Of a DNA stretch of 64,000 bases, positions 12,693 through 36,740 are shown in pieces. The notes below the pieces were generated by a model. That model saw only the letters and a program-made list of their open reading frames with translations, was not told the origin of the DNA and did no database searches. Origin of the DNA: an uncultured euryarchaeote (GTDB lineage Archaea; Thermoplasmatota; Poseidoniia; Poseidoniales; Poseidoniaceae). Both the position numbers and the translations under genes were made by a program. Where the stretch lies: assembly GCA_937899865.1 (NCBI GenBank), contig CALBRH010000054.1:23603-87602 (forward strand), written 5' to 3'. Every line of letters starts with the position of its first letter. The first letter of the stretch is position 1.

Positions 12693-13697
12693 TTATCTTC
12701 GTCTTGTTGCGTTAATATCGATTCTTCGCATGTTCTTTTTCTTTTCAGATTTCTTTGACTTGCCTTTACTGACGAAATCTTCTCTACTTAAGCCACCAAA
12801 TGTGATGCTGCCATTAGAAAGCAATGACTGTGCTAATTCATCTGCAACCTTCTCAGACTGTGCACCTGTTTGCATTTCTTGAGCGACTGCTGCATTGTGG
12901 TCGGTCAGCCAAGACTTTCTCTCTTCCCTTACTGATTTCAATTCATCTCTGGCCTTGTTAACATCAACCATCAATTCATCTATTTTGGCATGAACTTCAT
13001 TGGCTTTTTCCTTTAGTTCAACAAATTCTATATGGAATCTGTCGCCTTCCGACTTTAGGAAATCACGATGAGCAAATGCTTCATCTACTTCTGGAGTTTT
13101 AGCGTTGAGTCGCTCAACAGCTTGTATCATCTCATTATGGGCAGCATCTGCTTCAACCTTAAGAGTCTTAATAGCTGCGTCAATATCTGACATATCAACC
13201 TCAACCATCTTGAATTTGGTTACTTCCGGTTCCAACTCTTCGATTCGCTTCGAAAATTCTTTGATTTTCTTAACCATTTCCTTTTCTTTATTTATACCAA
13301 CTGAAGTTGTCTCAAATTTCTTCTCTAGTGAATCAACTTGTTGTTTCAAGTCAGCATATTCTGCAGTTGCAGAACGCTTGTTATTGTGATCTTTTCTCTT
13401 TCCCTTAATCTGAGAAATCAAATCTCTCATTTGGCTTTGAATTGTATTACGCTTTTCCTTGAAAGATTTAATCTCGGCTCGCATTGCTCTAACTTCAGTA
13501 ACTAATAATTCGATTTTTACACGGTGCTCTTTGTATTGGCCTTGTACTGAATTTCTTTTCTCAGCAGAAACTTTTGCTTGAGCATTGAAATTGTTTCTTG
13601 TTTCACGCATCTTACGAACTTTAGTTTCCATTGCATGTAGTCTTTCACGTAAGTCTGCATCTGGCCTCTCATCGCCCTCATTCAGTCTACCGCGCAT
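12693..13697 (-). CDS. Archaeal coiled-coil protein (COG1340-like)
   Basis: Heptad-rich; RETRNNFN...EKRN and KEKEMVKKIKE motifs shared with 22390..23259. Confidence 0.75.
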   Translation of the reverse strand: MRGRLNEGDERPDADLRERLHAMETKVRKMRETRNNFNAQAKVSAEKRNSVQGQYKEHRVKIELLVTEVRAMRAEIKSFKEKRNTIQSQMRDLISQIKGKRKDHNNKRSATAEYADLKQQVDSLEKKFETTSVGINKEKEMVKKIKEFSKRIEELEPEVTKFKMVEVDMSDIDAAIKTLKVEADAAHNEMIQAVERLNAKTPEVDEAFAHRDFLKSEGDRFHIEFVELKEKANEVHAKIDELMVDVNKARDELKSVREERKSWLTDHNAAVAQEMQTGAQSEKVADELAQSLLSNGSITFGGLSREDFVSKGKSKKSEKKKNMRRIDINATRRR

Positions 13698-16076: not shown

Positions 16077-18572
16077 TTAACCATCTTTTGACTTAAAAAT
16101 CATCTTACATGAGGGGCATCTAACTGAGCCATCGTATGATTCTGGGATTCTGAGACTTTGAGAACATTCTGGGCATGAAATCTCAACCTTTCCATCATTA
16201 ATATCCTCTATTAACTCCTCTTCTTCTTGAACTTCTTCCTCATCTATATCTTCTGAACCCACTTCGAAACTATGTGAACAATCAGGACATCTCACAGAAC
16301 CTTGATAGTTTTCAGGAACTCGAAGTTGTCTGGAACAAACTGGACAACTGATTTCAATCTTAACATCGGATAATTGAACAGACTCATTTTTGCGAGTTTT
16401 AACCTCTGACTTTGGCTTCTTTGGCTGTCTATTTGAATTCTCACGAATTCGAATCATCAAAATAATTAGAGAAGATACTGCTAATCCTCCCAATATTCCT
16501 GACCAAGGAATAGTAAAACTATCAGATGATTCCTCTGTGACAATTGATGAGAGGAAGATATTATCGATTTGCAGTGTATCACCACCATAATCCCACTTAC
16601 AATTTAGTCTAACTTCATCTCCTTCTGGCCAAGCAAAACTAAAGGAAATTGTTTTAGATGACCCTGCAGCAATCGGTGTTGTGCTTGATTCTGCAAGTTT
16701 AAATCCATCTCTATCATAAAGAATAATTGTTCCACTTTCACCTGTAATAGAGCCTTGATTTTCCAACAACACTGTCACACTAGCTGTTTCACCTGCTACA
16801 GGACGGTTTGGATTCGATTGTGAATTGAAGCTGATTGTGTATTGAGGCCTATCTTGAGGTATAGATTTAGTAAATGAGGAGAATGAAGATTCTGATGTCC
16901 AATTTATCTCTTGAACTCTAATTATTACATACTCCGCATCTACAAAACCAAAATTGAATGTATCGCCTGAAGAACCTGCACTAATTGTCATGTCAACATC
17001 ATAAACAATCGTATCATCTAAGTTACTACCATATCCCAATTTCACATTTATCTCCCGATCTATACCTGATGATAGATTAACCAGCCAATTGGCTGTCACT
17101 CCATCATCAATAGTCCATGAAACATCATATAATGACAGTTCAAAACTTTGCCTTTCCGAGACAGGAAGTAATATCTCACCAGATATATCATCAGCAATTT
17201 CACCATCAGTTGAATATAGTGACCAATTAAACTGTTCCGTACCAGAAACTAATATTGGAACAGTAATCGTAACTTCACCGGCCTCATCTGGCCCTAATGA
17301 CACCATACTGCCTTGATAATTTCCTGCAGAGGATTCCATTTTTAGTGAAACATTACCTTGCTTTGTACCGGTATTTCTTACTAACAACGAGAATGTTGAT
17401 TCATCCCCTACATGCCATGGCCCATCAGTTGTTGAAGGCGTAAAACTACCCGCATACTCGAATAATGCCGATTCGACAGTAAATGTCTCCGTTGAAGTAT
17501 TAATCGATGATGGGTCAATTCTTTGACCTGACAAGTAACATACTAATTCACCAGGCTTCAAAATAATAGTAAAGTCTACATTTGTATTCGAAGATGATTG
17601 AACAATTATTGCTGAATTATAAACAATTTCTTGATCGAATAAACAGGTCTTTTCACCTGAAAAATCAACAGTACCATTATTGTAAGTTTGTACTGTAATC
17701 TCTAAATTTTCGCCAGAAACTAAATTCTGACCATCATAAACTATTGAAGTTTCTAAAATTGGTAGTGGTGGAGGATTAACACTAGCAGTGAAATTTTGAA
17801 AGTTATCTGTAATGTAATCATCTATGGTCCCATTTAGGCTTATCGATATCGAAAAGAAGCCCTCAAAAACTTGTACTGTTGAATTAAAATATACGATTTT
17901 TGTTGACATTCCATTGAGGTCAAATACCGCTGAAGATTGCTGTTCTGAGGTAATTCCGTTATCTAAAGATAAATTTACGCTTCCAGTCCAAAGATAATCT
18001 CCGCTATTGATTATGGGAATTTGAAGCTGAACAAAATCTCCATCACTTAAGGAATAATTACCAGTTAATACAGAATTAGAATCAATCGATTCTAAGATAA
18101 TTGATGATTCTGGTGCTATTGAAATATTTAGCGGATTCAATCTATGAATCGTTCTTTGAAAATTCGAAATATCGTTTTGTGATTCAATACCTACATCACC
18201 TGTCAAGCCGACTGAAATTATTGTGTAGCCATAATTCAATGATGTGAAATTATACGAAATCTCTTGTTGCACTCCCTCGACTAAATCATAAGATATGCTT
18301 GAGTTGATTAGTACGGTTCCATCTATGGCTGAGGCTTCAAAATAAACCTGCCCAACATAATTTACTCCAAGCCCTTCATCGGTTGAAGAAAGGTTAAATT
18401 CTAATTCGAAATATGATTCATCGGTAGTTTGAAAGTCAACCAGGTTAATAGATTCTGATTCAATAGTAACTCCACCTCCACTTGCAGATGCTATAGGAGC
18501 ATTAAATAGAAATAAAAAAGTCACAAAAATAGCAAAAAATGTAACATAATTCCTGTTACAATCACCCGCCAT
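16077..18572 (-). CDS. Large surface protein: Ig/CARDB-like ectodomain, one TM helix, two cytoplasmic zinc ribbons
   Basis: Signal peptide; repeated V.N.G...G motifs; TM; CPVC..CPDC and CPEC..CPSC. Confidence 0.8.
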   Translation of the reverse strand: MAGDCNRNYVTFFAIFVTFLFLFNAPIASASGGGVTIESESINLVDFQTTDESYFELEFNLSSTDEGLGVNYVGQVYFEASAIDGTVLINSSISYDLVEGVQQEISYNFTSLNYGYTIISVGLTGDVGIESQNDISNFQRTIHRLNPLNISIAPESSIILESIDSNSVLTGNYSLSDGDFVQLQIPIINSGDYLWTGSVNLSLDNGITSEQQSSAVFDLNGMSTKIVYFNSTVQVFEGFFSISISLNGTIDDYITDNFQNFTASVNPPPLPILETSIVYDGQNLVSGENLEITVQTYNNGTVDFSGEKTCLFDQEIVYNSAIIVQSSSNTNVDFTIILKPGELVCYLSGQRIDPSSINTSTETFTVESALFEYAGSFTPSTTDGPWHVGDESTFSLLVRNTGTKQGNVSLKMESSAGNYQGSMVSLGPDEAGEVTITVPILVSGTEQFNWSLYSTDGEIADDISGEILLPVSERQSFELSLYDVSWTIDDGVTANWLVNLSSGIDREINVKLGYGSNLDDTIVYDVDMTISAGSSGDTFNFGFVDAEYVIIRVQEINWTSESSFSSFTKSIPQDRPQYTISFNSQSNPNRPVAGETASVTVLLENQGSITGESGTIILYDRDGFKLAESSTTPIAAGSSKTISFSFAWPEGDEVRLNCKWDYGGDTLQIDNIFLSSIVTEESSDSFTIPWSGILGGLAVSSLIILMIRIRENSNRQPKKPKSEVKTRKNESVQLSDVKIEISCPVCSRQLRVPENYQGSVRCPDCSHSFEVGSEDIDEEEVQEEEELIEDINDGKVEISCPECSQSLRIPESYDGSVRCPSCKMIFKSKDG

Positions 18573-18661
18573 ATAACTCTCAATTCGTTATGGTTATTGA
18601 CCTTCACGCAAAACCATCCCCCTGCGCCATGTTTTTCAACATTGAATTTCACCCGCCGTAT

Positions 18662-19351
18662 ATGACACCCGAGGACTTACTACGTGTTGAGCCAGAAGTC
18701 CTTGCAAAATTAATTCTCCACAAACGAGAAAGAATTTCACAATCACTACCAAAAATCATCGAATCATTAGGGGAAGAAAAGCACACTGCGGAGAATTTAG
18801 CACGAAAATCAAGAGCTGAAAAAGAAGACTTAGAGCCGAAGGTGAGTAACCTATACTATGAGCGAGCAAAGGTTGTTGCAGAACTCAATGACAAATTTGA
18901 CACAATTAAATTTGAAAATGATGAAAAAGATAGGTTTGATGAAATTTCTGAAAAACTTAAGTCAAAACAAACGAGTGTTGAAAATTTTAATAAAATTCTT
19001 TCTGAAATCGTAGAACTTTGTTCAAAATATGGTGGAAAGATTGAGCAATTAACCTCATATAAATCTTCAATGAAGGCTAATGATGCATTATCCGAAATAA
19101 TTGATGATTTTGAAAATGCCAAAAACAGATGGAATGAAAATGAATCTAACAGACGCAGATTAGAATCAAAATTCACCAAACTATCTACGAATCTAAGAGA
19201 TTCAAGTACCTCCAAAGATTATTGGCAAGATAAGTTGAATTCAGATTTTGAAGATTTATTGATTGATGCCAAACGTGTTGCTGAAGGAGGGCTTTCTAGT
19301 AGACAGCTGTCCCGTAACAATAAAGGTAAAAATAACTCAAGGAGGCCTTAA
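18662..19351 (+). CDS. Hypothetical coiled-coil protein
   Basis: K/E-rich helical sequence with basic tail; ATG 18662 preferred over the 18590 start in the track. Confidence 0.7.
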   Translation: MTPEDLLRVEPEVLAKLILHKRERISQSLPKIIESLGEEKHTAENLARKSRAEKEDLEPKVSNLYYERAKVVAELNDKFDTIKFENDEKDRFDEISEKLKSKQTSVENFNKILSEIVELCSKYGGKIEQLTSYKSSMKANDALSEIIDDFENAKNRWNENESNRRRLESKFTKLSTNLRDSSTSKDYWQDKLNSDFEDLLIDAKRVAEGGLSSRQLSRNNKGKNNSRRP

Positions 19352-19352
19352 C

Positions 19353-21422
19353 TTGTTAGCAGATTTTGAACAATCAAATATTGATTTAAAATATCTAGTA
19401 AATTATGGATATGTGATAAAAGCAATCAAAGGTGATGAACTATTTAGCGAGACAAAAATAAGTTCTGATTACATCTCTAAACTTGAAAGCCAATTAACTC
19501 TATTTGTCGAATCACAAAAAATTACCAAACCTCTAATTCAGCGAAGAAATGGTATCATCAAACACCTAAGGAAAATTTTGACAAACAAATTCATCAATTC
19601 AAAACTATCCTCTTTTGGCTCCTTCGAGTCAGGGTTAAGCCTATCAAACGGTGATATCGATTTATGCTTAGAATTCAATGGAGAGTCCCCAAAGAAGGTT
19701 CTGAATAAAATCGCTAGAATGTTAAATCAAGATAGTATGAAAAATGTGAAATTAATCACTAATGCCAAAGTCCCAATTGTAAAATTTATTGATAGTCAAT
19801 CGATGATTCCTGTAGACATATCAGTGAATAACAATTTATCAGTTTACAATACAGAACTACTTCGAAGATATTGCGATGTCGATCCAAGGGTAAAACCATT
19901 CATTCTAGCGATCAAGTATTGGGCTAGAAACAGAGGGATATGTGAACCAACATCTGGAACATTCTCATCTTATGCATGGACACTAATCGCGATAAATGCG
20001 CTGCAAACCATGCAAGAACCAGTAATACCTAACCTATGCACTAGAGATGGAACTAATGTTGTTGAGATTGATGGTCAAAATTATGATGTCTCTATGCAAG
20101 ATGTTTCTAATTCTAAATTTATCTCGAAAAATAATGAAACTGTAGCCGAACTAATAATATCATTTTTCTCGAATTTAGCCACCAATTGGCCATGGGATGA
20201 TTTTGTTATTTCTGTTCGAGAAGGTGCACTTATTACAAGAAAGCAGAAAGGTTGGAATCATCAAAAACCCAAAATTAGCAATGCTATACAAGATAAAAAA
20301 ATAATGCGTCTTGGTAAACACTCCCTTCCTGTAGAAGACCCATTTGATGAGATTCATGACTTGAGTATTGTTTTAGATGCTGAAGGAGTGTTTGAAATTA
20401 GAGATGAAGTTTTACGTGCATATTCTTTGTTGCATGAATATAATAATTGGGAAACGATATGTGAAGTAAAATACCCTGAGTTAATTCCTGAATCACCTCA
20501 ATTAGACCTTTTTGGCGACCTAAGAAATTTGTCAGAATCTGAAATTAAGACGGATTTGGAAAACTTATATTCTCAATTGAATATAGTAGAGAAAAGTGTA
20601 TCTATTCGTGAAAGTGAGAGAAATGATGCAATAAGAATGTCAAAGGCTTTGAGAAGAAATGCTGAGTTAGCAAAAGAACAATCTGTACTATCATCTGAAT
20701 TAAGACCAAGAAGATCGCAAATCGATGAAGCTCAAAGTAAGCGAGATTCAAGTAACAATAACTACATACCCGTACATTTAATTGAGGATGAGTTACACCG
20801 AACATATCACAACTTAACTAAGCAATCTGAAACTGGTATTGAATTATCATTTGAAAAAGAGAAGGCCTTATTTTCTTGGTTTTTTGAATTACAAAGCATG
20901 CATGAACATGCTAAGATAACAAGAAAACACCATCGAGAATTTTTGCGATTGGTCAATCAACAAGAAAACGCAATTAATCATATTAAGGACATAAAGCATG
21001 AAATCATCGATGTCAAAAATTTAGGGAATTTTAGAGACTTTGATGATTTAGCAAAAAGATTGCTTATTGAATTAAATCCTTTGAAGAAAGAACGGCGAAA
21101 ACTCCGTCGTGAAGTTGGTCGATTAGAAGCATGGCTGAGAAAACAAAAACATACACCAAATAAGCAACAACATAAAAATCGAAAATCTCGAACTACGAGA
21201 AGAAAAAATGATACGAATGTTAAAGAAATCAAAAATAAAGTTATTTCTGGTGATTCCTTTTCCCTGCAAGACCTCGATTTATTACTGAAAAGTGGTGGGC
21301 TAAAATCTGTCAATAATCAATCTGATAATAATAAAAAAAGTAATAATCAAAAGACCAAGAAAAATAAACCTACTTTGCAACCACATAGAGGGAAAAGAGG
21401 CAAATCATCTAAAAATATTTGA
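19353..21422 (+). CDS. Cid1/TUT-family non-canonical poly(A)/terminal uridylyltransferase fused to a coiled-coil domain
   Basis: FGSFESG...GDIDL, AKVPIVKF, VDISVNN, NTELLRRY, IKYWARNRGI, GTFSSYAWTL, EDPFDEIH. TTG start at 19353 inferred from GGAGG at 19341-19345; the track start is 19263. Confidence 0.85.
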   Translation: MLADFEQSNIDLKYLVNYGYVIKAIKGDELFSETKISSDYISKLESQLTLFVESQKITKPLIQRRNGIIKHLRKILTNKFINSKLSSFGSFESGLSLSNGDIDLCLEFNGESPKKVLNKIARMLNQDSMKNVKLITNAKVPIVKFIDSQSMIPVDISVNNNLSVYNTELLRRYCDVDPRVKPFILAIKYWARNRGICEPTSGTFSSYAWTLIAINALQTMQEPVIPNLCTRDGTNVVEIDGQNYDVSMQDVSNSKFISKNNETVAELIISFFSNLATNWPWDDFVISVREGALITRKQKGWNHQKPKISNAIQDKKIMRLGKHSLPVEDPFDEIHDLSIVLDAEGVFEIRDEVLRAYSLLHEYNNWETICEVKYPELIPESPQLDLFGDLRNLSESEIKTDLENLYSQLNIVEKSVSIRESERNDAIRMSKALRRNAELAKEQSVLSSELRPRRSQIDEAQSKRDSSNNNYIPVHLIEDELHRTYHNLTKQSETGIELSFEKEKALFSWFFELQSMHEHAKITRKHHREFLRLVNQQENAINHIKDIKHEIIDVKNLGNFRDFDDLAKRLLIELNPLKKERRKLRREVGRLEAWLRKQKHTPNKQQHKNRKSRTTRRKNDTNVKEIKNKVISGDSFSLQDLDLLLKSGGLKSVNNQSDNNKKSNNQKTKKNKPTLQPHRGKRGKSSKNI

Positions 21423-21476: not shown

Positions 21477-21911
21477 ATGCCAAAAAGCTGGCAATCAAAA
21501 ATTACTGAATTATTCATATCTGAAACTGGTGAAAGTTATACAGAAAATACATTTAGAATGCTAAGTATACCCGAATGGTTTGGAAATAAAATCCTCATAG
21601 ACACTAGTCTCTATCCACTGCCAGAATCACTAATGGGAGTAATGTGGTCTAAGCCTTTATTGGAAAATCGGATTCGTATAGTAGCTTTAGTCATCGATAA
21701 AAAAGTCCAAAATAATTCTCATGGGACAATGATACTTGATGATATAATTGGACACTCAAAATCTGAAGGTAAAATAATGATTCAGTTAGAAGTTCGTAAA
21801 TCAAATATTAAGGCTCAAAAATTCTATTCTCGTCACGGCTTGAAAATAGAAAAGACACTTAAAAATTATTATTCAAACGAAGATGGATTTCTTATGGTAG
21901 GAAATCTTTGA
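21477..21911 (+). CDS. GNAT N-acetyltransferase (RimI-like)
   Basis: LEVRKSNIKAQKFYSRHGL...KNYY...EDGFLM. Confidence 0.85.
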   Translation: MPKSWQSKITELFISETGESYTENTFRMLSIPEWFGNKILIDTSLYPLPESLMGVMWSKPLLENRIRIVALVIDKKVQNNSHGTMILDDIIGHSKSEGKIMIQLEVRKSNIKAQKFYSRHGLKIEKTLKNYYSNEDGFLMVGNL

Positions 21912-21951: not shown

Positions 21952-22284
21952 ATGGAAGAGTTTGTAGTCTCCGACTTAATTGATTCAAGTTACATCCTCA
22001 GTGCTGCAATACTTGATGATCAAGGATTCGTTATCTCTTCAAAGCCTAATGATAGTAAAACCAAAGAGCAACTATCGAAGTTTGCTGAAATACTCTACTC
22101 ATCTGAAGATTATGACCAGACATCAATAATTACTGAAGAACGAATTATAATTATTCACAAATTGGTAAAAGATTTCACATTAGTCGTAGGATGTGAGACA
22201 AATTCTAATTTAGGATTGTTAAGGAATGAAATTTCTAGCGCAGTATCTCGATTAAACACTTACTTCGATTCAACATCTCGTTAA
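21952..22284 (+). CDS. Roadblock/LC7-like small protein
   Basis: ILSAAILDDQGFVISS start, then beta-strand/helix pattern ending NLGLLRNEI. Confidence 0.6.
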   Translation: MEEFVVSDLIDSSYILSAAILDDQGFVISSKPNDSKTKEQLSKFAEILYSSEDYDQTSIITEERIIIIHKLVKDFTLVVGCETNSNLGLLRNEISSAVSRLNTYFDSTSR

Positions 22285-22389
22285 TCGATGGATTCATCCA
22301 AACAATTGATGATATCAAGCATTAAATGGGGGATACAGTTCGCCATAACAGTGTAAGGTGGGAATCTTGCACGCAAGGTGAGTATTGTA

Positions 22390-23259
22390 ATGAGCGAAAT
22401 TAATCAAGTTCTTGAGCAAAAAAAGAATATGGTAAATGAAAAAGCAACTAAATTCCGTGAGACACGAGACGAGTGGAACAAGAAATCCAAAACTCATTCT
22501 GCAGCAAGAAATGAATTAAATGCTGAAGTCAAAGAACTGATCGTTCAAGTTAGAGAGCAGAGAGAAATTAGAGAACAAATGAATGAAATGGTTCGTGAAA
22601 AGAAAGTTATTCGTCAAGAAGCAAATAAGAAAGTCAAAGAAATTAAATCTCGTATGGATTCATCAAGAGGCCCTGTAGAGCAAGATAATTCACGCGGTAA
22701 ACGTGGCCAGAGACCTATTACTTCTCATCAACTCAGAAAAGAACTTGAAAGATTGGAAAGAGAATTCGAACAAGGTAGACACACCGGTAAGAATGAAAAG
22801 AAAGTTATGAAAAGAATGAAGGAAATAAGTTCCAAACTAAAACAAATGACTTCTATTGATGATAGTAATGAAGACATGAAAGGTCTTCGAGAAGAATTAA
22901 AAATTGCTCTTGCAGAACAAGAGGATGCTCATGAAGAAGTACAAACTGCTGCAAATGCTGCTCAAGAAGCACATGAATTAATGCTACAGTGGAACAAAGA
23001 AGTTGACAAGCAACGAGAAAAGGCGGAATCATGCCATAGAGAGTTACGCAAATCCAAGAAAGAAGCTGACAAAGCACATCACTTGTACATTGTATCTTTA
23101 CGCTGCTTGCACTCAATACAAGACATGTCCGCTGCAATGTCTGGTAATGATGTAGAAGAAGGCGGTTCTAAGGCAAGAGTTGAGGTACAAGATTTGATGA
23201 CTAAATTGATGTCTGGAGATACTCTTTCTACTGAAGAATTGATGCAATTGCAAAAATAG
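22390..23259 (+). CDS. Archaeal coiled-coil protein (COG1340-like)
   Basis: RETRDEWN...ARNELN, EKKVMKRMKEI, terminal KL.SG..LSTEEL..LQ. Confidence 0.8.
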   Translation: MSEINQVLEQKKNMVNEKATKFRETRDEWNKKSKTHSAARNELNAEVKELIVQVREQREIREQMNEMVREKKVIRQEANKKVKEIKSRMDSSRGPVEQDNSRGKRGQRPITSHQLRKELERLEREFEQGRHTGKNEKKVMKRMKEISSKLKQMTSIDDSNEDMKGLREELKIALAEQEDAHEEVQTAANAAQEAHELMLQWNKEVDKQREKAESCHRELRKSKKEADKAHHLYIVSLRCLHSIQDMSAAMSGNDVEEGGSKARVEVQDLMTKLMSGDTLSTEELMQLQK

Positions 23260-23306: not shown

Positions 23307-24470
23307 ATGACCATGATACAGAAGGACGATATTGCCCAAATCGTCGAAGAATATGACCAATTGAAATTAAGAATTGGCATGACTGCTTCGCATTCAGCAT
23401 TGGATATATGTGATGGAGCAATAGAAGAAGGATTTCCTACCGTTGCATATTGTAAGGAAGGTAGACACAAAACATACGCCAATTATTTCAAGGCACATCG
23501 TACAAATTCTGGAAGAGTTAAACGAGGCATGGTAGATAAAACAATTATTATGGAATCGTTTAATGATGTTATGAAAGAATCGATGCAAGTAGAAATGAGA
23601 AAGAGAAATGTAGTATACATACCTAATCGTTCATTTACTTCTTATTCAACAATAGATGATGTAGAAAATAATTTCCATGTTCCATTGTTTGGCTCAAGAA
23701 ATATGCTTCGTATGGAAGAGCGCACTGAGGAACAAGATTATTATTGGATTCTAGAAAAAGCAGGATTACCATTTCCTGAAGCAATACAAAATCCTGAGGA
23801 TATTGATTGTCTAGTAATCGTAAAACTGCATCATGCACAGAAAAAATTAGAACGTGGTTTCTTCACATGTGCATCTTATCAAGAATATACTGAGAAGTCT
23901 CAAGCGTTATTGAAAAACGGTGTTATTGATCAAGCATCACTAGATGGGGCAAGAATAGAAAAATACGTCATTGGACCAGTATTTAACTTAAATTTCTTTT
24001 ACAGTCCATTAGCAGAACAAGGAGAAAAATTAGAATTGCTTGGGGTCGATTGGCGATTTGAATCTTCATTAGATGGTCATGTAAGATTACCTGCTCCACA
24101 ACAAATGACTATGCCATTGCATCAGCAAATTCCTGAGATGACTGTTGTAGGCCACAATACAGCTACAATTAGAGAATCTTTGCTGGAAAAAGCATTCGAA
24201 CTAGGCGAGAAATTCATCAAGGCTAGTAAAGAGCATTACGACCCAGGTATTATCGGGCCATTCTGCTTGCAAACTTGTATTGACAAAGACATGAATTACT
24301 ACATTTATGATGTTGCACCTAGATTGGGCGGGGGCACAAATGTACATGTCAATGTTGGCCATCCTTATGGCAATGCTACTTGGAGAAAGCCTATGTCAAG
24401 TGGCAGAAGAATTGCTATGGAACTACGTATGGCAGCTGAGCAAGATAGACTTCTAGAAGTACTAACCTGA
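23307..24470 (+). CDS. purP: PurP-family formate-phosphoribosylaminoimidazolecarboxamide ligase
   Basis: ASHSALDI.DGA..EGF.T, IPNRSF, FGSRNMLR.EER, GPFCLQT, RLGGGTN. Confidence 0.9.
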   Translation: MTMIQKDDIAQIVEEYDQLKLRIGMTASHSALDICDGAIEEGFPTVAYCKEGRHKTYANYFKAHRTNSGRVKRGMVDKTIIMESFNDVMKESMQVEMRKRNVVYIPNRSFTSYSTIDDVENNFHVPLFGSRNMLRMEERTEEQDYYWILEKAGLPFPEAIQNPEDIDCLVIVKLHHAQKKLERGFFTCASYQEYTEKSQALLKNGVIDQASLDGARIEKYVIGPVFNLNFFYSPLAEQGEKLELLGVDWRFESSLDGHVRLPAPQQMTMPLHQQIPEMTVVGHNTATIRESLLEKAFELGEKFIKASKEHYDPGIIGPFCLQTCIDKDMNYYIYDVAPRLGGGTNVHVNVGHPYGNATWRKPMSSGRRIAMELRMAAEQDRLLEVLT

Positions 24471-28363: not shown

Positions 28364-29935
28364 TCACTCCTCTGGGATGTAGTACAATTCTACACTACCT
28401 GTTCCAAGGGAAATTGGTTGACCTACAATGATGTTTTCTGCAACACCAGTAAGTTGGTCTCTCTCACCGATAATACCTGCTTTTAGCAAGTGGTTAACTG
28501 TAACTTCGAATGCAGCTCGTGCAAGGATACTGTGCTTTGTACCTGAAACACCGTGTCGCCCTATCGCTCTTACTTCACCTTCTGAAGTCATTACATCGGC
28601 AACTAATAACAAGTGTCTAACATCGACTTCAAGTCTCGCTCCATCTAGAGTTGCTTGTAATTCGTTAATGATTGCTTGTCTAGCAGCTTCAATACCTAGA
28701 TATTCGTAAATCTCAATAATGTTGTTAGTATATGTTCTACTTCGATCAATTGTTTCAATTTCACTTACTCTAGAAAGATTTGAACCGATTGTGGATAAAT
28801 AATATTCACCAGTTTTGTCATCAAGTTGTACATTAGCTCTCTCGACATTAGGAATACCCTTTAATCTCAAATCTCTAATCTTCTCTTCAAGTTGTAAAAG
28901 CATAGTGTATGATGGCGGGTTTTCAGCAAGTTCTGCCAAATCTTCCTCTGCATGGACACCTGGAATCAAAGTTAACTTGGAAGGATTCTTTTCCTTGTCA
29001 GCCTGTACATATAATCTAGTTGCTTTTTCCAACTTGTCCTTAACTTCTGCAGGAGTCATATTTTTCTGCTTCAAATTAGTCTTGTTTAATTTTAGAACAA
29101 GTCGTCTTTGTGCAACATCGGTCTCAAGGCTAGCAATGTTTACAGTTGTAGTAACTTCGATTGCTGCAGCCAACTTTTGAGCTTCCTCTGCAGATTCTTT
29201 CTTATCCGGATGTAGTCTAATTGTCATAGTTGGAGTTTGTGGGACTTTTCTAGCGTCAACAATTTCAATAATCCTTGGTAGACCTTGTGTTACGTTAACA
29301 GTTGCAACACCCGCATAGTGGAAAGTACGCATAGTCATCTGGGTTCCTGGCTCACCAATTGATTGAGCAGTAATGATTCCTGCTGCTTCATAAGGGTCGA
29401 TACTTGCTCTCTTTAGAGCAAAAATTGCCTCTTGAACGACTTTCTTTGCTTGTGGCTTAGTTAATTTCTTTTTATCTCTTGCATGAATTGCCATTGTCAA
29501 ATCATGTAAAATACGATTAGTAAATCTCCTTGAACCTGATTCTTCAACCGCAGCAACAATACTCTTGTAAACAGGATCATTAGATAATTCATCCTCAAGT
29601 CCAGTCAATTTTGCATCTACATTGTAAACATCGATGTCTGCTGTAGTTTTTACTCTTGAGCGTGCTCTTGACTTTTTACCAGTTCTACTTAGTCTAACTG
29701 AGGTAACTGGGCCAATTGCTTCATTATTTGCGAGTTTGTTTTTCTGATTTGCTCCATCAATAATACCTTTGATTTGAGTAGCAGTCTCTGAATCGGTTTC
29801 ACAAATTTGAGCAATGTTTTCAGTAGGAAGAATCTTAACATCGTCCCACTTTCTATCATCTGCTAAGATATGAGCAAAGTTTTCTGCGATTCCTAAATCC
29901 ATTAGCTTCTTCTTAGTTGCACTCTTAACTACCAT
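28364..29935 (-). CDS. rpoA2: RNA polymerase subunit A'' (Rpo1C) with N-terminal extension
   Basis: [38 protein letters not shown]-like [18 protein letters not shown]. Confidence 0.97.
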
Positions 29936-32900
29936 CAGATTTCACCTCCTTGTTCATCAGAACCTTCAAATTCCCAGCCACCCATGTCGTCTTCACTTTC
30001 TTGTCTTTCTCGAGAATCACGTTTGACAACTGTAGCACCTTCAGTACCCAATGCTTCATCAACAATTACATCGATATTGAATGGAGATCCGTGTACACCT
30101 CTGGAAGGGTCGATTCCGTCTTCACCATAACTAAATTGAATAATTCTGTTTGCAGTGTTCCTAACTGAAAGCATTTCATCATCGTATACTTTCAAGTCAT
30201 CCATAGCGTTAATTAGTCTTCTTTGCATATAACCGGACTTAGCAGTACGAACCGCTGTATCTACCAAAGACTCTCTTCCTGAGACTGATAGCATAAAGAA
30301 CTCTGTTGGCTCAAGTCCACGCTTGAATGAGTTAGAGATGAAACCTCTATCTAGAGCGCCACGACCTCCTCGCTTGAAGTGAGCTAATACTCTATCATGG
30401 TAACCTCTTTCCAATCTCTTACCACGAACCTTTGCTTGGCCTATGGAACCAGCCATCATAGTTAGGTTATCCATCGAACCTCTAGCACCAGAAATCGCCA
30501 TGTTAACTGCTGCGTTGGTCGAACCAGACTGATTTAGTTCATCTTTAGCAATGTCACCAGCCTTTTGCTTACCTTCATCAAGCATTACCATGATGTTTTC
30601 TTCCAAAGTCTCACGTGGAGTTCTACCTGGACGGGTCTCGTATCCTTTACCATCCTTGCCAAAGGCTTCCAATTCATCCTCAACTAATTTTCTTGCATCA
30701 GCATTTGCTTTCTCAATTGCAGCTAATGATTCAGGAGATAGGTCCTCATCATCTATACCAGTGGTAAATCCTAATGCAGTACATGCTGCAATAGAGAGTT
30801 GAGTGAAATCATCAAGGAACTTAGCGCCCTTTTCAGGACCATTGGTTTGTACAATTGCGTCAAGTAACCTTCCGTCTTCAGCACCAATTGCTCTCTTGTC
30901 TAAAGTTCCATCAACACTACCGTCCTTGACAACAACATCATCATTTGATCTACTTCTAAATCGAAGATGGATATTATCTGGAATAATTAGAGAAATAATA
31001 TCTTGGCCTCTGAAACTATCTTTGCCATTCTCATCTTTGACAATCTCAGGCAATAAACCAGTCCAACCAATATTTCCAAGCATCTCAAGTCCATGTTCTA
31101 CTGAAATCAATGTTCCAGGCCTAGATAGTAGGTAAGCACCAGAAATGTGGTCATGAATACCACCAATTACCGCACCACCATATCTTGGAGTCAAAATATG
31201 TTCTTGCACTCGCATTAGAATCTTAGCTTCTGCTCTTGCTTCTTCTGACTGAATAACGTGAAGATTCATTTCATCGCCGTCAAAGTCAGCGTTATATGGA
31301 GTACATACTGCTAAATTGAATCTAAAAGTATGTCCTTGCATAACTCTTACTTCGTGAACCATCATGGACATTCTGTGTAATGATGGTTGTCTATTGAAGA
31401 TAGCAACATCACCATCAATTAAGTGCCTCTCAACTAGCATACCAGGCTTAGGATTACCATCTCGGTCGAAAGTTGACAGTCTGTCCTCAACAGAGGTTCT
31501 TTCGCCCCATTCATCAGCAGGACTGCCACAGTGAGGACAAGTAATCTCCAAATGTTCTGGAATTGGATCTGAAGTAACTTTGTCAAGTTGCTCTAACTCC
31601 CACATCCATTTGTAATGCAGAATTGCTCTTGGGTCATCCTTTTCTAATGCATTTCCATTGATATCTTCTCCTCTAAGGTTAGCAACAGTTGAAGCAACAT
31701 CAGCAACATAATTAGTTTCCTCAATACTTGGATCAGCAATAGATCTGCTAATCTCCTTTTTGATTACCAATCCGGGTAAGAAGTTTGGAGCAGGCATTAC
31801 TTTATTCAAGTCTGGTCTTAATGTGGTCTCATCTGTACATTCTGGATTATGACATCTAAAACCAGCATTGATAAATCTGCTTCTTGCATTAATTCGAACT
31901 CTTCTCTTGTCACCACGAATAATGTAGTTTACACCTGGGTGCACATCAGGACCTCTAAGAATCATCTGTCGCATTTGCTCTCGATTCCTCATAGTTACTC
32001 GGATTGGAACTGTTAGTTCTCTAGCAATCTTTTCAGGGACCCCAACTTCATTGACACCAAGATATGGGTCAGGTGAAATTACTGATCTGGCACAGAAGTT
32101 TACACGCTTTCCTGATAGATTACTTCTAAATCTTCCTTCCTTACCTTTCAATCTTTGAGTAAGTGTCTTCAAAGTTCTACCTGAACGGTGTCTTGCTGGT
32201 GGAATACCTGAAGTTTGATTATCAAAGTAAGTTGTTACGTGGTATTGTAGCAATTCCCACAAGTCTTCAACAATAAGTTGAGGTGCACCAGAATCTCTGT
32301 TTTCTCTAAGCCTTTGATTGATACGAAGGACGTCAACTAACTTGTGAGTCAAATCGTCTTCTGAGCGATCACCGCTGTCTAGGGTAATAGATGGTCTAAC
32401 AGTAATTGGTGGAACTGGTAAAACCTTCAAAACAGTCCATTCAGGTCTGTTTTGTGTATGCATACCAATAAAGATTAGATGTTCTAATGGAATACTGCTC
32501 AACCATTCTCTAACATCCCTAGGGTTAAGTTTTCTCTCCGTTTCCTTACCAGCACCTTGAGTCTCTAACTTTTCCTTGAATGTAGTTGGTTTGTCAAGTG
32601 TAATCTTACCTTGAGCCGCTCCACAGTGCATACAGACTTTTCTCTTAGCACCTGAAGTTACCTTCTCAATTTCTTTAATGATTTTTGAGAATTCTGTTGA
32701 ACCTACACCGTGTTTCAAAATAATATCACGTACTCTTGTACGATAGTAATCTTGTTCACTTAATTCAGGATTTGAAGGGTGAGTATTTTTCTCATCGTGC
32801 AACAAAATCTTGCTGCAAGAATTACAAGTTGCCTTTAGTGCGGTCTTGATAAGCCCAACAAAACCAATGTGAATTACTGGAAGTTCAAGTTGAATATGAC

Positions 32901-33135
32901 CAAAATGCCCTGGGCTTTCATCATACTTGCAATTGTCAGTAGGACAAACAAGTCCTGGCTCAATTACACCCATATGAGGGTCCATCAAACCTTGTCTATA
33001 TGCATGACCATCATCCTTGTAAGTATCAGCAGTCTTAACTTCTACAGCTGACATCTTTCTAATTTCATTAGGGTCCATAAGACCAAATCTAATACTAGCG
33101 ATTCGCTTTGGTATAAGGGTTGTAACTCTGCTCAT
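29935..33135 (-). CDS. rpoA1: RNA polymerase subunit A' (Rpo1N) with a large insertion
   Basis: Catalytic [10 protein letters not shown]; GHFGHI; RGNLSGKR-like RSNLSGKRV; [10 protein letters not shown]. Confidence 0.98.
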
Positions 33136-36100
33136 CTTCGATCCTCCAGTTCTAATCTCATGGCCACACCTAAACTCTTCATCTCATCTAACAACAACTT
33201 GAATGCATAAGATGTTTGCACCTTGTAAACTTCAGCGCCATCTCCATGAATCGGACTTACATATGTTCGACGCTTTGGATCATACCAAGCAAGATGCCCA
33301 GATTGGGCACAGACATACATGTCGATACCATCGGATTCATCCAGCAATCTGTCTTTAATGACCATTGATGCACCGTGAGCAATCAAACAGTCACGTTCCA
33401 TCTCACCAAACCTCAGTCCACCTTGTCGGGCACGACCTTCGGTTGGTTGACGTGTCAAAATTTGAACACGTCCTCTTGAACGGGCATGTATCTTTGAACT
33501 TACCAAGTGATGTAATCTTTGGTAGTAAATACATCCAATGAAAATCTCTGCTGGATATGCTTGTCCAGTTTCACCATTAATCATAGTTTCACGTCCAGAG
33601 TGAGCGAATCCATTTCGAATTAGACCATCTCTTAGACTTCCTTCCTTCTCTCCTCTAAATGCAGTACCGTCGATTCTTCTACCTTCGAGTGAACCTACTT
33701 TACCACCAATCATTTCCAAAACGTGAGCAACTGTCATTCGTGATGGAATAGCGTGTGGATTGATGATTAAATCTGGTACAACCCCTTCAGCAGTAAATGG
33801 CATATCCTCAGGGTCTACTAATCTTCCAATTACACCCTTTTGTCCGTGTCGTGAAGCAAACTTATCGCCAACTTCTGGGACCTTATGACTTCTAACCATG
33901 ACTCTAACCATGCGCCCAGAGTCTAGAGATTCAGTGACATATACATTGTCGACCCATCCTTTCTCTCCGTGTCTTACAAGCATTGAGGATTCTCTTCTTT
34001 CTTGAGCCATCAAGAACGCTCCACCAGATGATTCTTCCAAGAATCTAGGTGGACTTGTCTTACCAACTAGAACATCTCCACCTTCAAGTTCTTTCTCAGG
34101 CAGAGGTAATCCATCTGCTTCAAGATGGAGATATGACTCATCGGGCTTCAATCCCTTTACTTCTTGTAGGGAAGAACCTGGCTTCTCGATTTCTTCAACT
34201 TGACCACCTGGGAATCTTCGACGTTCTGCATTGTAAGTCCTCATGAAAGTAGAACGACCAAGTCCAAGATCTATTGAACCTCGATTCATGATTACTGCGT
34301 CTTGCATATTGTATCCATGTAGAGACATAATTGCAACTATGAAATTTTGACCTCCAGGTCTTTCATCAAAGTTTGTGGTTTCCATTGCTCTTGTACGAGT
34401 AATGGATCTTTGAGGATAGTGTAGAATATGAGCTCTTGTGTCTGGTCTTAGACGATAGTTGGATGATGGTAGACCAAGAGATTGCTTAACCATTGCAGTT
34501 CCACCAGTAACACGAGGTGTTGAGTTGTGTTCTGGGTAAGGAATTAGCGAAGCACAGACACCAAGTACTAATTGCGGATCAATTTCACAGTGAGTATGCT
34601 CTGTAGTATATTCCAAAGGTACTGAAATACTTGCAACTTCCCAATCATTGTTTGGCATTCTAATTTTAGCCTTCAGTTTAGCAGTTGTTGCGCCTGGCTC
34701 TCCCAAGTTAGTCCATTCTACACTTTCATTACTAATTGGTCTACCAGCATACTTTCCTTTAGGAATTGTAGCAGGTAAAACGAAAGGTTTTGGAGCGATG
34801 TAAAGGTCTTCTTCTTCTTCAGCATCCACCCACTCAACAATCCCTTCATTTACTAGATCCTTAAAGGTCATCTCCCCAGATGACAGTTTTTGCAAATGTT
34901 CTGATTCAAGTCTAGGTGCACCATCGTATAGAATCAATAATGGACGTAGAATTCGACCTTTATCGGTATTGATGAAAATATCACGATTTTCACTATCGTA
35001 TCGGATAGAAACTTCGGAAGGAATTGCTCCACGTCGTCGAGCAGATTTGAAGTGCCTAACTAGATTTGTTCCACGCTTATGGATACCATAAATATCACCA
35101 TTAACGTGGATTCTGTCACCATCGCTCCAATCCTCCGGCTGATATACATCTAGTTCATCTAATTGGTTTCTAACATCTTGCTCACTGATGTATTCTGAAA
35201 CATCAATCATTTGAGCAGCATTCTTTACTAGACCACAGTTTTGTCCTTCAGGTGTTTCGTTAGGGCATAGTCTCCCCCAATGAGTAGGGTGAAGGTCACG
35301 TGCCTCGAAGTGAGGTTGGCTTCTAACAAGAGGAGAAGTTACTCTTCTCATATGAGACAGCGCTGCTAAATATGTGGTTCTATCTAATAACTGGCTTACG
35401 CCAGAACGACCACCAACCCAATTTCCAGTTGCTAATGCATGCATAATCTTGGAGGTTAGAACATCAGGCCTCAGACAGGAAGTTATTCTCAACTCTCTCT
35501 TTCTATTGTGATGTCTCTCAAGTTGGTACTTTAGATCTCTAGCTAGTTGGTTTGATGAGACTCTAAACAAATCTTCAATCAAATCACCAGCAAGCCTAAC
35601 TCTCTTGTTTGCGTAGTGGTCTTTGTCATTTGGCTGCTTGGAATGCATTGCCATTTCTAGAACTTGCCTAACAATTCTACCAAGGAAAACTGCCTTCTTC
35701 TTTCGATCAGTTCCTTGATCGCCAAGGTGAGGTAATAATTCTCTGTCCAGCAATTGATCGACTCTTGCCTCACGGTAATCTTTTTGTTGACCAGCAGCAA
35801 ATTTCTTTTGCAACCATTCGTGGGCTTCAAGCATATTTTGAACTGCATATTCTTCATTGTCATTTACTTCGTTGATGTTTGCAACGATATACTTGAAAGT
35901 CTCTGTTGGACCTGCAATAGCAGTAAAGATTTCTTGGTCATTATCAATGCCAAGAGCACGCATTAGAAGAACTACTGGAATTGGAGTTGTTCCTGCAGTA
36001 CTAATCTTAACCATCAACATTCCATCTCTTCTCTTCTCAACAGTTAGAGGTTTTCTCATACCGTCTTTTTGTGAGAAAATCTTTGCAACCTCTGTTTGCT

Positions 36101-36740
36101 TTGCATATCTGTTGTTAATCTCAACAGTTACTCTGTTCGGAGCTAGATCTTCAGTTGAAATTAGTACTCTTTCTGTACCATTGATGATAAAATAGCCACC
36201 AGGGTCTAGTGGGTCCTCGCCTTTTGTCTTGAGGAGTTGTTTCCACAAATCTGAATCCTCATTGGAGGTCGTAGGATATAATTGTCTATCACCTGCTATG
36301 TGCGCAGGATGTAAGTTGCATCTCTTTGAACGTACCATAATTGGCATGCTTCCGACTTGAACTCCCTCTTCCTTTGGAGATGGTATTCCGTTTCTAACGA
36401 TTTGGAAATCAATAGTTACTGGAGACATATATGTTAATTTTCTCAATCTACATTCCATAGGTGTTGAAGGGTGCTCAGAACCATTTGCTTCTCTAATGGT
36501 TGGCTCTCCAAGTTGAATATTCTTTAGTCGAATAACAATATCTTGGTCAACAACGTCGAGTTTGATGAAACCACCTTCATCGTCCTCTACTTCTCCATCT
36601 ATTCCTACACGAATGTTACGAATTATCTTCTCCATACGAGACAACATATTGTCTCCAGCAGGTATACAGTCATCATAAGATGCAATTTGGTGATTTACTA
36701 AACTTCTTTCCTTGAAAAATGATTGAATTATTTCTTGCAT
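33132..36740 (-). CDS. rpoB: RNA polymerase subunit B (unsplit)
   Basis: GGYFIING.ER, CPNETPEG.NCGLVKN, GDKFASRHGQKG, GGLRFGEMERD. Confidence 0.98.
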   Translation of the reverse strand: MQEIIQSFFKERSLVNHQIASYDDCIPAGDNMLSRMEKIIRNIRVGIDGEVEDDEGGFIKLDVVDQDIVIRLKNIQLGEPTIREANGSEHPSTPMECRLRKLTYMSPVTIDFQIVRNGIPSPKEEGVQVGSMPIMVRSKRCNLHPAHIAGDRQLYPTTSNEDSDLWKQLLKTKGEDPLDPGGYFIINGTERVLISTEDLAPNRVTVEINNRYAKQTEVAKIFSQKDGMRKPLTVEKRRDGMLMVKISTAGTTPIPVVLLMRALGIDNDQEIFTAIAGPTETFKYIVANINEVNDNEEYAVQNMLEAHEWLQKKFAAGQQKDYREARVDQLLDRELLPHLGDQGTDRKKKAVFLGRIVRQVLEMAMHSKQPNDKDHYANKRVRLAGDLIEDLFRVSSNQLARDLKYQLERHHNRKRELRITSCLRPDVLTSKIMHALATGNWVGGRSGVSQLLDRTTYLAALSHMRRVTSPLVRSQPHFEARDLHPTHWGRLCPNETPEGQNCGLVKNAAQMIDVSEYISEQDVRNQLDELDVYQPEDWSDGDRIHVNGDIYGIHKRGTNLVRHFKSARRRGAIPSEVSIRYDSENRDIFINTDKGRILRPLLILYDGAPRLESEHLQKLSSGEMTFKDLVNEGIVEWVDAEEEEDLYIAPKPFVLPATIPKGKYAGRPISNESVEWTNLGEPGATTAKLKAKIRMPNNDWEVASISVPLEYTTEHTHCEIDPQLVLGVCASLIPYPEHNSTPRVTGGTAMVKQSLGLPSSNYRLRPDTRAHILHYPQRSITRTRAMETTNFDERPGGQNFIVAIMSLHGYNMQDAVIMNRGSIDLGLGRSTFMRTYNAERRRFPGGQVEEIEKPGSSLQEVKGLKPDESYLHLEADGLPLPEKELEGGDVLVGKTSPPRFLEESSGGAFLMAQERRESSMLVRHGEKGWVDNVYVTESLDSGRMVRVMVRSHKVPEVGDKFASRHGQKGVIGRLVDPEDMPFTAEGVVPDLIINPHAIPSRMTVAHVLEMIGGKVGSLEGRRIDGTAFRGEKEGSLRDGLIRNGFAHSGRETMINGETGQAYPAEIFIGCIYYQRLHHLVSSKIHARSRGRVQILTRQPTEGRARQGGLRFGEMERDCLIAHGASMVIKDRLLDESDGIDMYVCAQSGHLAWYDPKRRTYVSPIHGDGAEVYKVQTSYAFKLLLDEMKSLGVAMRLELEDRR

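Follow-up and report, generated by a model that had tools for sequence, protein, structure and literature searches.

What is an enzyme of the Cid1/TUT type doing in a marine archaeon, and how did it get there? The question is raised by the gene at positions 19353–21422 of a 64,000-nucleotide stretch of contig CALBRH010000054.1 (assembly GCA_937899865.1), here called the window, from an uncultured member of the Poseidoniaceae (Marine Group IIa, MGIIa). Uridylation of RNA by enzymes of the Cid1 family is regarded as a trait of eukaryotes, and the Poseidoniaceae rank among the most abundant archaea in surface seawater. An initial annotation of the window had proposed a Cid1/TUT-family terminal nucleotidyltransferase with the His associated with selection of uridine triphosphate (UTP). 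The reading that we favour, with moderate confidence, is that the gene product (the transferase) is an active enzyme of the Cid1/URT1/TUT4-7 type, of which the catalytic module was acquired once in the ancestor of the Poseidoniaceae and fused to a coiled-coil protein present throughout the order. The sequences suggest an RNA-tailing pathway not described in archaea.

Gene, family and active site

The gene and the motifs of its catalytic part were delimited as follows.

19353–21422, + strand: whole fusion gene, 689 residues, consisting of a Cid1/TUT-type catalytic module, a native coiled-coil C-domain and a basic tail
19340–19345, + strand: Shine-Dalgarno-like AGGAGG, read from the sequence 7 nt before the TTG start at 19353
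19440–20480, + strand: catalytic module, about residues 30–376, with a nucleotidyltransferase (NTase) palm (Pfam residues 44–174) and a PAP/OAS1 substrate-binding domain (PAP_assoc residues 264–335), placed by Pfam, phmmer against the PDB and Foldseek
19653–19661, + strand: catalytic D101-x-D103 (D101-I-D103)
19815–19817, + strand: third catalytic Asp, D155, within VDISVNN
20337–20357, + strand: nucleotide-recognition cluster D329..D332..H335 (DxxDxxH), H335 being equivalent to Cid1 H336

The open reading frame (ORF) ends with the stop codon at 21420–21422 on the + strand. A mechanical list of ORFs opens it at TTG 19263, overlapping the upstream gene cc253, but TTG 19353 was preferred as the more probable start because of the spacing of AGGAGG, the adjoining cc253 stop (TAA at 19349–19351, 1 nt before the TTG) and the same TTG and N-terminus LL(A/T)xFE retained in the closest relatives. 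The positions that the initial annotation had given for the DxD, for D155 in VDISVNN and for the His codon (H335, 20355–20357, within EDPFDEIHD) were all exact in the translated ORF.

By every criterion that was testable, the transferase is a member of the Cid1/TUT family. Sequence, Pfam profile and fold agree on this point, as had been claimed from the motifs. The protein has FGS (S90), DxD, the third Asp, PAP_assoc after the palm and a superposable bilobal fold. It matched the Pfam profiles MTPAP-like_central (PF22600, 8e-30), NTP_transf_2 (5e-7) and PAP_assoc (PF03828, 1e-9, 38.9 bits against a cut-off of 22.6). With phmmer, the best PDB sequences were TUT7 (5.2e-47), URT1 (6.3e-47) and TUT4 (3.9e-45), with CutA at 5.5e-39; the order of scores after TUT7 and URT1 was Cid1 (1.5e-34), GLD-2 (8e-27), TUT1 (Star-PAP), MTPAP and Trf4, those from GLD-2 onward at a distance. 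An AlphaFold model built on 36 family members had a predicted local distance difference test (pLDDT) score of 83.4. Its best Foldseek match was URT1 (7xs4; E 3.7e-21, template-modelling score (TM) by target 0.90, root mean square deviation 2.6 Å, 348 columns), and the catalytic module of TUT7 (5w0o) reached a TM of 0.91.

RNA-tailing enzymes made up all 30 listed rows of the top 50 Foldseek matches and all 43 PDB sequence matches, bar weak tail-end matches to TM1012. None of cGAS, DncV and OAS occurred among these 43 or the listed Foldseek matches, which does not by itself exclude an unlisted family. CCA-adding enzymes were likewise absent from the PDB sequence matches and the listed Foldseek matches, and tRNA_NucTransf2 (PF09249) from the Pfam matches. 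A placement with CCA enzymes or CD-NTases, named beforehand as the outcome that would speak against the family claim, thus did not occur in the Pfam, PDB or Foldseek matches. No NCBIfam model matches the transferase, and public records name it 'hypothetical protein'.

Among the genomes searched, the catalytic module was found in the Poseidoniaceae and not elsewhere. In the counts, which are based on samples made of incomplete genomes, f1 denotes the Poseidoniaceae and f3 their sister family. With the catalytic half as query, matches were obtained in 108 of 150 f1 genomes, covering eight of 12 genera, at identities down to 27%. The PAP_assoc profile was present within the order in 66/99 genomes of f1, 0/2 of f2 and 0/99 of f3, across the phylum in 42/57 of f1 versus 0/343 of other families, and in none of 14 control genomes. 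The contrast between f1 and the rest is stark. A scan for close relatives in 185,579 species genomes returned two Poseidoniales records only; with a single protein as query, it does not exclude distant prokaryotic relatives. The earlier attribution of the enzyme to 'these archaea' therefore holds for the Poseidoniaceae in the profile counts and not for the rest of the order (f3 0/99).

The active site was assessed in an alignment of 36 full-length archaeal relatives, 29–73% identical to the window's protein. S90 of the hG[GS] motif was found in all 36, as was D336 of the recognition loop. The catalytic triad D101, D103 and D155, N166 (equivalent to Cid1 N171), the base-stacking Y207 and the loop residues E328 and D329 were each retained in 35, the lone exception at every one of these positions being one inactivated lineage. 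At the position equivalent to Cid1 H336, 133 archaeal cluster representatives had His (129), Arg (3) or Ile (1). The HMMER alignment laid EDPFDEIHD of the transferase on EDPFETSHD of URT1, bearing out the predicted His.

A cluster of the form DxxD/ExxH marks poly(U) polymerases (Kobylecki et al., PMC5689010), and in Cid1 H336 hydrogen-bonds uracil O4, while H336N moves the enzyme towards ATP (2026 Cid1 review, PMC13702519); the role ascribed to this His in the initial annotation is in line with both sources. Its remark that adenylating members have Asn here is consistent with the published survey, where all proven non-canonical poly(A) polymerases have a terminal Asn in the cluster and the C/U-adding CutA has Arg (PMC5689010). 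Since the DxxDxxH rule fits and His occurs in 129 of the 133 representatives, UTP is the best prediction for the nucleotide used.

Fusion to a coiled-coil protein and its predicted partner

The part of the transferase that follows the catalytic module comprises three features.

20481–21419, + strand: C-domain, residues 377–689, defined by models, conservation and an order-wide stand-alone ORF
20505–20525, + strand: DLFGDLR motif, first conserved block of the native protein, with the fusion junction just upstream
20760–20909, + strand: residues 470–519, including the most conserved C-domain block FSWFFELQSMH; predicted interface with cc253

At the syntenic locus of genomes without the module, the last 300 residues of the transferase still gave tblastn matches. 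In genome G038 of the sister family, a 354-residue ORF with the motifs GLFDDL, FSFFFELQAMY, MRREVGRLDAY and LSMEDLGALL lies between the cc253 homologue and the GNAT gene; because it abuts the cc253 homologue, this locus leaves no room for a lost module. The stand-alone gene of genus g13, within f1, encodes 436 residues with an N-terminal KGKSQS repeat. A C-domain profile was matched in 156 of 161 genomes of the order (f1 77/79, f2 2/2, f3 76/79), and outside the order weak relatives occurred in one other family only. The ORFs measured about 690–760 residues with the module versus 285–415 without it. In stand-alone proteins a short N-terminal peptide, basic or rich in RGG, leads directly into DLFxDLR, and in fused proteins the module ends just before DLFxDLR. 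Because of this junction, and because a stand-alone C-domain occupies the same locus where the module is missing, we conclude that a catalytic module was grafted in frame on the N-terminus of a native order-wide gene. This fusion is probably the key to targeting of the transferase.

The N-termini of the stand-alone C-domain proteins are variable and of low complexity, with KGKSQS repeats (L040:8917-10227 (-)) or an RGG-rich stretch (L052, G056). Such N-termini hint that the ancestral protein bound RNA.

In the model of the C-domain (pLDDT 83.6), four long helices are accompanied by a small helical end domain, which bears the motif LSLxDLDxLLxxGG, and by a disordered tail rich in Lys and Arg with HRGxRG at its end. 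Pfam gave nothing above noise for it, and alignment by VIA-align to 48,161 chains gave generic coiled coils only, with a best Z of 11.1, below the meaningful level for long helices. An Atlas search with the C-domain returned leads at 0.79–0.80 only. Its candidate partner is encoded directly upstream.

18590–19351, + strand: cc253, a 253-residue coiled-coil protein, paralogue of DUF7121 and predicted partner of the C-domain, with its stop 1 nt before the TTG

The cc253 gene was found directly upstream of the transferase gene in eight genera and is also at the locus in the sister family. A complex prediction for the C-domain and cc253, with family alignments for both chains, gave an ipSAE (interaction prediction score from aligned errors) of 0.66 versus 0.00 for the best of three controls; this mark is reached by 58 of 80 solved complexes and two of 110 mismatched pairs, a calibration that is only rough here as our own alignments were used. 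At least 91% of the contacts agreed between runs and the pLDDT of the partner was at least 78. On the C-domain side the predicted interface comprises residues 94–143 (470–519 in the numbering of the whole protein, around FELQxMH), and on the cc253 side conserved segments at both termini. The prediction supports binding of cc253 by the C-domain, and such binding would be in keeping with how tightly translation of the two genes is coupled.

In hhalign, cc253 matched DUF7121 with a probability of 95% and the C-domain matched DUF7121 (PF23435) with 40% (E 2.9e-4, 156 columns); pairwise BLASTP of the C-domain with the neighbouring coiled coils was not significant. DUF7121/COG1340-like proteins resemble the C-domain in their long antiparallel helices, their C-terminal SGxxLSxxEL motif and their place in the same gene cluster, but the C-domain differs from them in its lack of a Pfam match and its low hhalign probability. 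Nothing useful was found in the literature on COG1340 or DUF7121.

Two further observations concern these proteins. A 334-residue coiled-coil protein (window 12693-13697, - strand) is another DUF7121 paralogue (hhalign 95.5%) with a similar C-terminal 'GSITFGGLSREDF' motif and a basic tail, which brings the related coiled-coil modules within 11 kb to at least three, perhaps four. Most cc253 homologues (L030-L043) end in ...GEEE, and the downstream frame reads ...RRM or ...GRM just before the ATG; these ends are consistent with overlapping stop and start codons and a putative downstream ribosome-binding site inside the upstream coding sequence.

Locus, origin and other RNA enzymes

The transferase gene is truly archaeal, is old and is vertically inherited at one fixed locus in the Poseidoniaceae. 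The RNA polymerase genes rpoB/A'/A'' lie in the same window at 28364–36740, 7 kb away. The window's genome (91% complete, 0.18% contamination) has one copy of the transferase, more than 100 species-level genomes have the gene at this locus, and relatives occur on contigs as long as 1.8 Mb and in one single-contig genome. Of the public genomes with a name, the nearest is 'Candidatus Poseidoniaceae archaeon ... MGIIa-L1' (92% identity). The archaeal host that the initial annotation had assumed is confirmed by the rpo genes and purP in the window and by the long contigs, and the contig is not a chimera with eukaryotic DNA, which that annotation had called unlikely, as the locus and gene order are the same across genera.

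An identical order was observed in eight genera: an IdeR-like repressor, a membrane protein with CARDB and zinc-ribbon domains, then divergently cc253, the transferase, a GNAT protein, in some cases a Roadblock-like protein, DUF7121 and purP. Downstream of the transferase the window contains the following.

21477–21911, + strand: RimI-like GNAT acetyltransferase, conserved downstream neighbour (Pfam Acetyltransf_1 1e-7, synteny)
21952–22284, + strand: 110-residue protein with a faint Roadblock/LC7 resemblance (Robl_LC7 E 0.072 only)
22378–23259, + strand: DUF7121 coiled-coil protein ahead of purP (Pfam 9.9e-19), syntenic in every locus examined
23307–24470: purP

Against the NCBIfam rimI model the GNAT protein scored 6.8e-16 (58.6 bits, below the cut-off of 86.4). 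The 110-residue protein was found by tblastn in four of 14 loci and is thus kept in part of the family. The membrane protein (window 16077-18572, - strand, 831 residues, a CARDB domain and two C-terminal zinc ribbons), divergent from the cluster, has the same position in every locus examined in both families. In the sister family and genus g13, the Roadblock-like gene is separated from DUF7121 by a KaiC/RecA-like ATPase gene (PF06745, 3e-28; L041:9618-10367 (-), L040:7167-7868 (+)), which the window lacks at the corresponding position. Further downstream, a 503-residue ORF (window 37663-39174, + strand) apparently combines a HemK/MTQ2-like methyltransferase N-half with a biotin-protein ligase C-half (NCBIfam, residues 48-240 and 261-416).

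An exhaustive search of 1.84 billion representatives placed archaeal proteins in the first 13 places (at least 227 bits), followed at no more than 203 bits by long TUT4/7-like and shorter URT1- or Cid1-like proteins. The named relatives outside the archaea are all eukaryotic, among them mussel, spider TUT4, Fabomonas, Filamoeba, a chytrid, Basidiobolus, Prasinoderma, a haptophyte, Galdieria and a fern. When 86 catalytic domains were placed in a maximum-likelihood tree, the 11 archaeal rows formed one clade (Shimodaira–Hasegawa-like approximate likelihood ratio test (SH-aLRT) 99, stem 0.79). No relative of the transferase was found in IMG/VR contigs that could point to a viral vector. The most economical reading is a single transfer into the ancestor of MGIIa, with a eukaryote as the most probable donor; this direction is favoured because the module is broadly distributed in eukaryotes as against one archaeal family, and because of the gradient in the PDB scores.

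Other RNA enzymes of the window's genome include exosome RNase PH subunits. The class I CCA-adding domain PF09249 was found in none of 41 genomes (the window's and 40 relatives, from three families). A class II (bacterial-type) PolyA_pol protein of 449 residues is present at least in the window's genome, the one searched for it (CCA-enzyme entry G000:C63:97684-98049, L029). A role of the transferase as replacement for the CCA enzyme was rejected, since class I is lacking order-wide irrespective of the gene and is compensated, at least in the window's genome, by the class II enzyme.

A 785-residue RNB exoribonuclease (G000:C62:3424-4518; L025:1054-3408, - strand) is closest to bacterial RNase R. 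It was present in 50/59 genomes of f1 versus 2/60 of f3 (MGIIb), both f3 carriers having 4% contamination, and looks like a second family-specific acquisition in RNA decay. Genus g22, where the module is mostly missing, has it in 15/15 genomes, and g23, which carries the module, in 2/9. It was considered and rejected as a Dis3L2-like reader of U-tails: its nearest relative is RNase R, and because it does not co-vary with the module inside f1 it provides no evidence for such a reader.

Assessment and comparison with known systems

In the proposed mechanism, one Poseidoniaceae ancestor would have acquired the catalytic module, most probably from a eukaryotic source, and the module would have joined in frame to the N-terminus of the pre-existing order-wide protein. 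The coiled-coil C-domain would pair with the translationally coupled cc253 and the basic, RG-containing tail would hold RNA or a ribonucleoprotein (RNP), while the module would add untemplated nucleotides, most likely uridines, at the RNA 3' end; the two-metal DxD...D site would catalyse the reaction and the His-containing recognition loop would select the nucleotide. We infer enzymatic activity, a preference for UTP, RNA as substrate and decay or processing as outcome of the tailing, together with a role of the coiled coil in targeting. Whether the Poseidoniaceae thus run a eukaryote-derived RNA 3'-uridylation, with an acquired terminal uridylyltransferase (TUTase) module on a native coiled-coil RNP scaffold that chooses the targets, is in our judgement evenly balanced.

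Several points weigh against this proposal. The first concern the origin and the pathway. A phylogeny with eukaryotic relatives, suggested in the initial annotation, did return a monophyletic archaeal clade among eukaryotic sequences, but its attachment to protist and algal sequences was weak (SH-aLRT 83, the tree being a quick one built from the 86 best relatives with no outgroup), and the candidates for the sister group include Fabomonas, a haptophyte and a red alga as well as unnamed marine sequences. As the tree is quick and without an outgroup, donor and direction of transfer rest mainly on distribution. No dedicated reader of U-tails was identified in the genomes, the RNB enzyme not tracking the module within f1.

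The next points concern the nucleotide. The His at the recognition position favours UTP without proving its use, four of the 36 family members have Arg there, as in CutA, and further loop residues modulate nucleotide preference (PMC5689010). It is conceivable, though unlikely, that enzyme and architecture are as described and that the added nucleotide is not mainly U (poly(A), CutA-like C/U, or mixed). The module scores well against CutA and GLD-2 (5.5e-39 and 8e-27), Arg at this position is unique to CutA (PMC5689010) and H336R widens the substrate range of Cid1 (PMC13702519). The His of the DxxDxxH cluster in the window's protein and in 129/133 representatives argues for U all the same, as do the Asn always present in proven poly(A) polymerases (PMC5689010) and the best sequence and fold matches, which are proven uridylyltransferases.

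The last points concern the need for catalysis. In a C-domain tree rooted on f2 and f3, stand-alone f1 forms were interspersed among fused forms: stand-alone g13 was sister to fused g18 (support 98), one stand-alone g22 group was sister to a fused g22 protein (support 98), and a second adjoined fused g19. Well-supported branches require at least three changes, so the module is dispensable in some lineages and was lost at least three times, the changes being read as losses because the module had a single origin. In g18, the ORF was intact (654–673 residues) and the active site gone in seven of seven genomes examined, with GS changed to GN or GI, DxD to GxE, the third Asp to Arg, N/T to K/Q and His to K, Y or F; another set of inactivating changes was seen in a separate representative (P0193). 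From the losses and the dead genus it follows that the conserved complex does not depend on the function of the module. What is conserved at the heart of the system is the coiled-coil protein, with catalysis as an accessory discarded by some lineages.

Both the intact reading frame of g18, with its altered DxD, third Asp and His, and the complete loss of the module in other lineages could be taken to mean that catalysis is vestigial and that the module chiefly provides the coiled-coil complex with a non-catalytic scaffold or an RNA-binding domain. We consider this improbable, as the catalytic and nucleotide-contact residues are intact in the window's protein and in 35 of 36 members, although identity falls to about 30%. 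An activity in signalling or defence (OAS- or CD-NTase-like), or on a non-RNA substrate, would draw on the NTase fold common to those families and on the neighbouring GNAT and KaiC-like genes, which could suggest a regulatory system. It is very improbable in view of the 30 listed Foldseek rows and the 43 PDB matches, all RNA-tailing bar the weak TM1012, of a fixed core-genome site by purP and RNA polymerase rather than a variable island, and of the lack of relatives on viral contigs. Eukaryotic contamination or an assembly chimera, to which the nearest named outside relatives, all of them eukaryotic, might point, is refuted by the conservation of the locus in more than 100 species-level genomes, on long contigs and in a single-contig genome, by the in-frame fusion to an archaeal domain and by the Shine-Dalgarno-led TTG start coupled to the upstream gene.

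In a literature search of incomplete coverage, no publication on an archaeal Cid1/TUT-family enzyme and no such report from Marine Group II was found, in agreement with the initial annotation, which knew of no established archaeal TUTase. The 2026 Cid1 review names neither archaea nor prokaryotes (PMC13702519). New are the host domain, the architecture, the restriction to MGIIa, the fusion to an order-wide gene, the recurrent loss and the inactivation of the module, and cc253 as a predicted partner. If our reading is true, the transferase would be the first prokaryotic terminal uridylyltransferase and a clear case in which a domain passed from a eukaryote to an archaeon and was then fused. An active enzyme would add a new layer to archaeal RNA metabolism in a globally abundant family, a dated example of gene flow from eukaryotes to archaea in the plankton, and a foreign catalytic module harnessed through fusion to a native scaffold. 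Nature provides controls in the dead genus, in the lineages from which the module was lost and in the sister family, which never carried it, and this pattern of active-fused, dead-fused, module-lost and never-had forms makes the hypothesis directly testable.

Among known systems, tailing by the archaeal exosome and the class I CCA enzyme share with the transferase the template-independent addition of 3' nucleotides in archaea, but their folds and mechanisms are unrelated or only distantly related. Fungal CutA (6YWN-6YWP), which adds C/U, has the same fold (phmmer 5.5e-39, Foldseek E 3e-20) and the Arg that a minority of the archaeal family has at the specificity position; its cluster is ExxNxxR, in contrast to DxxDxxH with His in the window's protein.

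S. pombe Cid1 (4FH3 and others) is similarly a minimal catalytic module, and its D101/D103/D160, N171/T172 and H336 correspond to D101/D103/D155, N166/T167 and H335 of the archaeal protein. It differs in the Glu in the middle of the cluster (D332 here), in being a weaker match than URT1 and TUT7 (1.5e-34) and in its lack of a C-terminal fusion.

The greatest likeness is to Arabidopsis URT1 (6L3F, 6L8K, 7XS4) and the catalytic module of human TUT7/TUT4 (5W0O, 8OEF). In these the NTase palm is inserted in the PAP/OAS1 domain in the same way, GS, DxD and D are the same, the EDPFxxxHD loop agrees residue for residue and the TM is 0.90–0.91. Identity is only about 30%, however, and about 20 extra residues precede the recognition loop in the archaeal clade. 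Zinc knuckles, a Lin28-interacting module and the disordered N-terminal stretch found in URT1 are all missing from the archaeal protein, which has instead a C-terminal coiled-coil domain of about 310 residues with a basic tail, in an archaeal host.

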